DNA from: a virus
Taxonomy: Duplodnaviria; Heunggongvirae; Uroviricota; Caudoviricetes
Virus record (IMG/VR): IMGVR_UViG_2537561620_000013
Span: 1 to 10,741 of that record
Reading direction: 5' to 3' (one strand)
DNA: 10,741 nucleotides
Shown here piece after piece: positions 1-3,000 of the stretch. Made by a program: the position numbers. The first letter of the stretch is position 1; every line of letters begins with the position of its first letter.

Positions 1-3000
1 TATGTGGTGGCAGGGCTGGCGACAGGGTAACGGTACGCTGTGGCAGCCCAACCAGCGGGTGATTGTCTTTGATCCGGTCTGTGGTTTCGACAATACCGAA
101 CTGCTTGTTTCGGAAGTCACGTTTACTCAGGACCAGAACGGCACCCTGACGGAAATCCGTGTCGGCCCGCCTGATGCTTATCTGCCTGAACCCGAAGACC
201 CCGGCGCGCGGAAAAAGAAAAAGCCAGAGTACAGGAGGACCCGTTCTGATGAGGACGATTGAAGCCATGCAGCGACAACTCCTCGGCCTGATTGGGCGGG
301 CAGTGGTGAAAAGCATCAGTGCCGCCACGAAATGTCAGACCGTGGATGTGTCCCTGATTGCCGGTGAACCCAAAGCCGGGGTTGAACATCTTGAACCCTA
401 CGGTTTTACCGCAAGGGCAAACAGCGGTGCGGAAGCGGTGCGGAAGTGGTGGTGTTGTTTCCGGATGGCGACCGTTCTCATGCGGTGGTTGTTACGGTGT
501 CGGACCGGCGCTACCGCCTGAAAGGGCTGCAGACGGGTGAGGTGGCGGTCTATGACGATCAGGGGCAGTCCGTGACGCTGACCCGGGAGGGGATCGTGGT
601 GGACGGTACAGGTAAAACGATCACGTTTCGCAATGCGCCTGAAGCACGTTTTGAAATGGACCTGGAAGTAACAGGACAGGTGAAAGACCTGTGCGACTCC
701 GGCGGCACCACCATGTCAGCAATGCGGCTTGCCTATAACGGTCATCGTCACAGAGAGAACGGTCAGGGCAGTAACACCGATAAACCTGATAAAGCTATGG
801 AGGCATGATGGAACTGTGGCTGACGGTGAACGGTAAACGCACCTGCGCCAGCGCACCGCTGGATCCGCTGACCCGCGCCGTGGTGATTTCCCTGTTTACC
901 TGGCGGCGGGCGGAGCCTGATGACAACGCCGACGTCCCGATGGGATGGTGGGGGGATACCTGGCCTGCGGTACAGAATGACCGTTACGCCTCCAGACTGT
1001 GGCTGCTTCAGCGCAGCAAACTGACCAATCAGCTGGTGCAGACGGTAAGGGGGTATATCCGCGAATGCCTGCAATGGATGACTGATGACGGCGTGGTGTC
1101 CCGTATTGATCTGGATATCCGCCGCACCGGGATTAATGAACTGGGTAACAGTATCACTCTCTGGCGTCGTGACGGACCGGTAATGATTTCTTTTGATGAT
1201 CTGTGGAGTGCGATAACGCATGGCGGACAGTGAATTTCAGCGCCCGACGCTGGCAGAAAATATCAGTATGCTCCGTAACGATTTATTCGCCAGGCTGGAC
1301 GTCAGCGACACGCTCCGGCGCATGGATGAAGACGTGCGGGCAAAGGTGTATGCGGCGGCGCTGCATACGGTTTACGGGTACATCGATTATCTGGCAATGA
1401 ACATGCTGCCTGACCTGTGCGATGAGTTCTGGCTGGCGCGACATGCTGCGATGAAACGGTGTCCGCGCAAGGGGGCCACGGCTGCCAGCGGGTATATGCG
1501 CTGGGAAGGTGTCAGCGATGGCCTGAAGGTGACTGCCGGAAGTGTTATTCAGCGCGATGACCTGGTTCAGTACACGGCAACTGCCGATGCAACCAGCTCC
1601 GGTGGTGTCCTGCGCCTGCCGATCGCCTGTTCAACTGCAGGCGCGGTCGGTAACGCTGACGACGGTACGGCATTAATCCTGGTCACGCCGGTGAATGGTC
1701 TGCCGTCTTCCGGTGTGGCAGATACCCTGACAGGTGGATTTGATACTGAAGAGCTGGAAACGTGGCGCGCCCGCGTCATTGAGCGGTATTACTGGACGCC
1801 GCAGGGCGGGGCTGACGGGGACTATGTCGTCTGGGCTAAAGAAGTGCCCGGCATTACCCGTGCATGGACATACCGTCACTGGATGGGAACGGGAACTGTT
1901 GGTGTGATGATTGCCAGCAGTGACCTGATTAACCCCATTCCGGAAGAATCAACGGAAACGGCGGCAAGACAACATATCGGGCCACTGGCCCCGGTGGCAG
2001 GCTCTGATTTGTATGTGTTCAGGCCGGTGGCACATACGGTGGATTTTCATATCCGCGTGACGCCGGACACACCGGAAATACGGGCTGCCATTACCGCGGA
2101 GTTGCGTTCGTTCCTGCTGCGTGATGGTTATCCGCAGGGAGAACTGAAGGTATCGCGTATCAGTGAGGCGATTTCCGGTGCGGACGGGGAATACAGCCAT
2201 CAGTTGCTTGCACCGGTGGACAATATCTCCATTGCGAAAAACGAACTGGCGGTACTGGGGACGATTTCATGGACGTGACAAACGATGATTACATCCGCCT
2301 GTTATCGGCACTGTTGCCGCCCGGTCCGGCGTGGTCAGCCAGAGATCCGGCGATTGCCGGTGCGGCACCGTCATTAACCCGCGTTCATCAGCGTGCGGAT
2401 GTCCTGATGCGGGAGCTGGATCCGCGCACCACCACTGAACTGATAAACCGCTGGGAGCGTCTGTGCGGTCTGCCGGATGAATGTATTCCCGCAGGGACAC
2501 AGACCCTTCGCCAGCGTCAGCAACGACTGGATGCGAAGGTTAACCTGGCGGGCGGCATCAATGAGGATTTTTACCTTGCACAGCTTGCTGCCCTGGGCAG
2601 ACCAGACGCCACCATCACGCGATACGACAAAAGCACGTTCACCTGCTCATCTGCCTGTACTGACGCGGTGAATGCGCCGGAATGGCGGTATTACTGGCAG
2701 GTCAACATGCCAGCCGCCACCAACAGCACCTGGATGACATGTGGCGATCCCTGTGATTCCGCACTGCGTATCTGGGGCGACACCGTCGTCGAGTGTGTGC
2801 TTAACAAACTCTGTCCGTCGCATACCTACGTAATTTTTAAATATCCGGAGTAATCCATGCATCGTATAGACACGAAAACCGCGCAGAAGGATAAGTTCGG
2901 CGCGGGTAAGAACGGTTTTACCCGTGGTAACCCCCAGACCGGCACACCTGCCACCGATCTGGATGATGACTACTTTGACATGTTGCAGGAGGAGCTTTGC

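Follow-up and report, generated by a model that had tools for sequence, protein, structure and literature searches.

The central baseplate spike gene of an SfV/SfII-family prophage resident in Shigella flexneri K-1770 is interrupted by an 11-bp tandem duplication, which is very probably a genuine loss-of-function lesion in an element that is itself degrading. The stretch analyzed here (the window) is the entire 10,741-bp contig AKMX01000020.1 of assembly GCA_000268245.1, from a strain of ST1025 isolated in Bangladesh (PMC6397287). The original prediction placed two tandem copies of the 11-mer at 424–445 and held that deletion of one copy would restore a single ORF of 182 codons; positions 424–434 and 435–445 are indeed identical, and removal of 424–434 leaves a 549-bp, 182-codon ORF from the ATG at 249 to the stop at 806–808. 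Tandem Repeats Finder reported a repeat at 423–451 with a period of 11 and 2.6 copies, and direct scanning showed three possible registers for the perfect 11+11 tandem, with starts at 423, 424 and 425. The same scan revealed no other perfect 11+11 tandem in the window except in an A/T-rich microsatellite around 7180–7250, and when the window was simulated 2,000 times with a first-order Markov model, only 0.3% of the simulated sequences contained any perfect 11+11 tandem. When SfV orf17 and two E. coli prophage orthologues were aligned with the window, they contained a lone 11-base gap. The features are listed in Table 1.

Table 1 Features of the 10,741-bp window and the basis of their assignment.
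Feature	Position	Strand	Basis or remark
Baseplate hub gene, 3' end (SfV orf16 / Mu P, gp44-like)	1..249	+	stop overlaps spike ATG
Central baseplate spike pseudogene, two frames (SfV orf17 / Mu gp45 / "baseplate assembly protein V" homologue)	249..808	+	96.8% identity to SfV orf17 apart from the 11-bp insertion
First copy, gcggtgcggaa	424..434	+	sequence, repeat scan
Second copy, gcggtgcggaa (inserted material relative to orthologues)	435..445	+	sequence, alignment
Partial third copy, gtggtg; T447	446..451	+	alignment with SfV and E. coli
Premature stop TGA, original frame	519..521	+	90 aa = ~64 native + 26 out-of-frame residues
gp46, intact	808-1233	+	ORF length equal to orthologues
gp47, intact	1220-2278	+	ORF length equal to orthologues
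gp48, intact	2269-2853	+	ORF length equal to orthologues
Fibre gene, intact	2857-3507	+	ORF length equal to orthologues
Fibre assembly gene, intact	3512-3913	+	ORF length equal to orthologues
Acyltransferase-3, oacD-type, intact, 349 aa	4686..5735	-	PF01757; 98.3% identity to SfII acyltransferase region
Type-specific gtr glucosyltransferase pseudogene (PF19528 / DUF6056)	6453..7738	-	comparison with intact 413-aa E. coli alleles
gtrB, intact	7735-8652	-	
gtrA, intact	8649-9011	-	
attP-like spacer before integrase	9012-9272		collinear with SfV
SfV-type integrase, 3' 449 bp (~149 of 387 codons)	9273..9721	-	97.1%, collinear with SfV gtrB-gtrA-attP-int; integrase PHROGs
Partial IS600 truncating the integrase; contig ends inside	9710..10741	-	

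Baseplate spike, the identity originally predicted, is the right name for the gene. With family membership defined as a score above the Pfam gathering threshold (24.1 bits), the restored protein scored 84.8 bits against PF06890 (Mu Gp45 N-terminal) over the full profile (1–68), and the 90-aa fragment scored 55.3 bits over profile positions 1–48 only. Residues 5–122 of the restored protein aligned with residues 14–130 of Mu gp45 (PDB 9ki1_V, E 8e-14), the entry name of chain V in 9ki1 being Mu "baseplate puncturing device gp45". Pfam assignments put the hub (gp44/P-like) gene on one side of the spike gene and the wedge genes gp46, gp47 and gp48 on the other. Its SfV counterpart, orf17 (NP_599049.1), is annotated as "baseplate assembly protein V, similar to phage Mu GP45" and has orf16 (hub, Mu P-like) and orf18 (Mu gp46-like) as its neighbors. 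Positions 200–850 matched SfV, SfI, SfII, SfIV and related phages at 95–97% identity; orf17 and its SfI, SfII and SfIV counterparts occupy the same slot between hub and gp46-like wedge genes, share 96–97% DNA identity with the window, and in the case of orf17 the protein differs from the restored one at two residues only (A63V and A117T). Whereas orf17 encodes a 182-aa protein, the window copy with its 11-bp duplication cannot, and the uninterrupted ORF of ~180–200 aa expected of a family member is replaced by frames of 90 and 120 aa. The window copy is a pseudogene of the PF06890 spike family and no working member of it.

Mu gp45 resembles the window gene in its PF06890 N-terminal domain and in its neighborhood of gp44-like hub, gp46, gp47 and gp48, but its sequence relationship to the restored spike is only distant. 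A trimeric spike plugs the hub at the center of Mu-type baseplates, and the C-terminal part of Mu gp45 forms a beta-helix and a metal-binding apex. In the published description of Mu, the central spike is a gp45 trimer composed of OB-fold, beta-helix and apex domains, and the distal tail channel is closed jointly by this spike, the hub and the tape measure (PMC11915804). By analogy, the restored protein would have the beta-helix/apex architecture in common with Mu gp45; it contains an H-R-H motif at residues 162–164, and its C-terminal 81 residues (102–182) had no sequence match in the PDB. Among PHROGs, the restored protein matched only the unnamed family phrog_28548, a 96-position profile, through residues 1–68, and this family possibly derives from truncated sequences resembling the 90-aa spike product.

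Comparison with orthologues, proposed together with the original prediction, returned single 182-aa ORFs throughout and never the two-frame arrangement, both in phages (12 of 12 records) and in E. coli. The region was present at a coverage of at least 80% in 1,087 of 5,426 complete E. coli genomes, again as a single 182-aa ORF, and a search of these 5,426 genomes gave 1,102 matching E. coli RefSeq records, all without the duplication; the best E. coli identity, 96.8%, reflects 11 gap columns and ~10 substitutions. The sequence at this site is GCGGTGCGGAA-GCGGTG-GTG in SfV and E. coli and GCGGTGCGGAA-GCGGTGCGGAA-GTGGTG-GTG in the window; the T at 447 corresponds to A63V in the restored protein. 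A 69-nt query of the single-copy T447 sequence was found exactly in none of 1,085 E. coli records, 1,084 of which matched it at 95–99%, with one mismatch each among the matches listed. Six contigs, whose source isolates bear the name E. coli or S. flexneri, encode exactly the restored 182-aa protein (V63, T117; P0004), and three encode the A63/T117 form (P0005). The P0004 contigs carry single-copy T447 DNA that is otherwise identical to the duplication-bearing L004/L006 haplotype at the variable sites compared. The most economical history of these alleles would run from A63 to V63 (C>T at 447) and then to the duplication, and under this history the duplication is a truly perfect tandem copy. 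The predicted perfection of the repeat accordingly holds relative to the T447 parent allele, which exists in other isolates, but not against the GCGGTG sequence of SfV and E. coli. The three-step allele series (A63, V63, duplication) is a possible lineage marker.

As for the origin of the lesion, we infer that the 11-bp unit GCGGTGCGGAA was duplicated in tandem on an allele already carrying T447, most likely because replicating strands slipped or misaligned where short direct repeats (GCGG, GGTG) are abundant. Starting from the ATG at 249, the upstream frame ends with the stop at 519–521; positions 446–808 form the downstream open frame. The 11-bp insertion puts the ribosome in the wrong frame after residue 64 and leads it to the stop at 519–521; the resulting 90-aa fragment retains the Gp45 N-terminal (OB-fold) domain only as far as position 48 of 68 and loses all downstream protein, including the part corresponding to the beta-helix and metal-binding apex of Mu gp45. 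The domain is broken at position 47/48 of the 68-position PF06890 profile. A prophage with this gene should be unable to build infectious tails by itself, and loss of virion assembly or tail completion is the consequence expected from the role of the spike in related phages. Independent runs and assemblies have yielded 28 recorded contigs with the 90-aa product, none of them longer than 50 kb. Two annotated proteins with the name "tail protein", EIQ19067.1 and EIQ21145.1, represent frameshift fragments, a point that annotators should bear in mind.

The tail module as a whole is far from generally decayed, because the other tail genes near the lesion are intact, those downstream being equal in length to their SfV and E. 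coli counterparts, and the upstream calls are full-length, with 10 kb (capsid to hub) of tightly packed, full-length gene calls in GCA_902504875.1. The duplication-bearing haplotypes are separated by 19 synonymous versus 9 non-synonymous substitutions, which are clustered and look like imported mosaic variation rather than decay. The base-level quality of the K-1770 assembly is imperfect, because it has single-base homopolymer discrepancies of its own at window positions 9 (an extra G), 217 (A6>A5), 6424 (G8>G7), 6857 (A7>A6) and 7291 (A8>A7), none of which is present in the other assemblies compared; these five differences are probably sequencing errors. Should the changes at 9 and 217 be genuine, a stop at 28–30 would truncate the P/gp44-like hub gene as well.

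A variant of the 90-aa product with Q30L (P0002) is found on four contigs of other isolates and also on a second K-1770 contig, AKMX01000008.1 (L038). This contig matches window positions 1–3894 at 98.4% identity and then runs into a gtrV-type cassette with 97.3% identity to SfV. It carries the same 11-bp duplication and T447, and K-1770 contains two SfV-family tail modules with a broken spike in both; neither can complement the other, because both spikes are broken. Features of this gtrV-type, SfV-like tail module with the duplication were located at 2521–2793 and 6100–7794 of L038. The two duplication-bearing haplotypes have many flanking differences and are identical around the lesion, a pattern compatible with gene conversion between prophages residing in the same genome and also with the duplication of a module that was already defective. 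Set against cryptic Shigella and E. coli prophages in general, the same lesion in two prophage copies of one genome is the particular feature here, and one lesion in two paralogous copies may provide a small example of prophage–prophage recombination. The original prediction also called the duplication clean and recent-looking; the spike gene shows no further decay, but the recent age implied has to be qualified in view of the 28 contigs and 4 more with the variant, the two haplotypes and the two K-1770 prophage copies.

A sequencing or assembly artefact, with one copy of the 11-mer in the true genome, would agree with the K-1770 draft having homopolymer indels seen in no other assembly, and with L038, on which many genes that are intact in other isolates are split, probably again by sequencing errors. 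The duplication is nevertheless real, because seven further loci, in independently produced assemblies (GCA_902504875.1 and six Logan assemblies of different sequencing runs, SRR34853657, SRR4184827, ERR200407, ERR6005222, SRR7286487 and ERR6005003), all contain the identical junction of 29 nt. The junction also recurs on the second K-1770 contig, the product and its variant are on record on the contigs counted above, and a perfect 11-bp duplication is unlike an error of the homopolymer type; on these assembled contigs, rather than on reads, an artefact appears extremely improbable. Scarcely any probability attaches, likewise, to a functional two-frame layout, in which programmed −1 frameshifting would produce the spike or two proteins would jointly replace it. 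A −1 shift anywhere in 395–518 would restore the downstream frame, and the C-terminal 120 codons are still open; however, no slippery heptamer of the form X XXY YYZ was found in this permissive zone, and no conserved start or Shine-Dalgarno sequence was evident before 446, 497 or 542. With no heptamer in 395–518 and single-frame orthologues, a programmed −1 frameshift gene was rejected, and function in two pieces is unlikely because the break lies inside one Pfam domain, not between domains.

A further alternative is that the duplication acts as a reversible switch that toggles by slippage, with single-copy T447 alleles as revertants and virion competence as a phase-variable trait. These alleles do differ from the duplicated haplotype by 11 bp only, deletion of either copy restores exactly the single-copy T447 allele, and tandem duplications are known to be prone to loss. 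Phase-variable repeats are marked by many copy-number states; among the loci compared, only one-copy and two-copy states, never three or more, were seen, and the change between these two states may have run in either direction. Reading the single-copy T447 allele as an ancestor takes two events and reading it as a revertant takes three, the duplicated state has been stable enough to reach 28 contigs and two haplotypes, and the element is without an intact adjacent integrase, so that we regard such a switch as very unlikely. Equally little credit is due to the broader version, in which the duplication is reversible between on and off or homogenized by gene conversion, the rare single-copy T447 alleles are revertants, and the lesion is copied between co-resident, possibly tandem, SfV-family prophages. 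If this were true, virion competence of both prophages would be switched together.

Loss of function in a resident, degrading prophage is the reading we retain, and the predicted absence of selection on the element as a virus is supported by its state as a decaying prophage, with an integrase cut by IS600 and a tail module deleted elsewhere. The window has the make-up of a serotype-converting prophage of the SfV/SfII type (Mu-like tail module, gtr(type)-gtrB-gtrA, attP and int), in which gtr(type) is here a pseudogene and int is truncated. It is collinear with SfV at 1–3894 and 7738–9721, and over the acyltransferase with SfII. IS600 interrupts the integrase at 9721, a breakpoint shared by the complete genome CP026098.1 (L030). 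Four of the five S. flexneri genomes compared, the complete chromosomes L026, L029, L030 and L031, have lost everything to the left of window position 3987: their homology to the window starts exactly there (at ~2406 on each), next to IS1, and the whole tail module appears to have been lost from these four in one deletion. What remains there is an island of oacD, dead gtr and gtrB near lutA/lutB (ykgE/F). The sequence comparison points to an old resident that is being dismantled and of which the K-1770 lineage retains more.

Cryptic and defective prophages of Shigella and E. coli decay by frameshifts, IS insertions and deletions, and useful cargo is kept. The window likewise contains a frameshifted structural gene, an IS600-cut integrase and an IS5-family remnant, and retains the O-antigen-modifying cargo (oacD-type, gtrA, gtrB); in other strains, an IS1-bounded deletion removed the tail module. 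In principle, there is no difference between such prophages and the element in the window. The lesion is an ordinary, lineage-shared prophage pseudogene whose mechanism and consequence are conventional and of an already known kind. That two prophage copies share the lesion, and that the allele series can be observed, is neat but unsurprising; the finding addresses no open question, and its small practical value is to document how a serotype-converting prophage of S. flexneri becomes locked into the chromosome.

At the right end, gtrA, the attP-like spacer and the int 3' end adjoin one another (8649–9721), as they do in the free phage genome. In a simple lysogen, gtrA and int lie at opposite ends. 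The gtrA-attP-int' arrangement, which is also present in CP026098.1 (L030) together with the int breakpoint, would fit tandem lysogeny in which the int of the second prophage was cut by IS600. ARAGORN detected no tRNA gene at the att site. A ~100-bp remnant of an IS5/IS1182-family transposase, annotated in E. coli relatives, was observed at ~6050–6150, between the acyltransferase and the gtr pseudogene.

The original prediction that cargo genes are left expressed stood in part: the oacD-type gene, gtrB and gtrA are intact ORFs, from which expression would be possible, but the serotype-specific gtr is a pseudogene with multiple hits. The oacD gene has been assigned to SfII (PMC8952252). The gtr lesions comprise a nonsense codon (TGG>TAG at 7561), a frameshift (T8>T7 at ~7705) and a repeat expansion (7179–7247). 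Among the five complete or near-complete S. flexneri genomes compared, the nonsense codon was common to all five, the T7 frameshift was present in four (all but L030), and the expansion was present in all five with differing lengths. An antisense 65-aa ORF, which is called only when gtr is broken, is on record in 1,751 blocks, and a 55-aa gtr fragment is on record in K-1770 alone; contigs with an exact GtrB match were only long E. coli contigs, in which gtr is intact. The expanded tract is a T-rich repeat that adds 47 bp relative to the intact E. coli alleles; its unit is TATTTT in the window and TATTTGT or TATTTTT in other strains. Both tract length and unit composition differ in most of the S. 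flexneri genomes compared, and the tract is a hypervariable microsatellite within the pseudogene.
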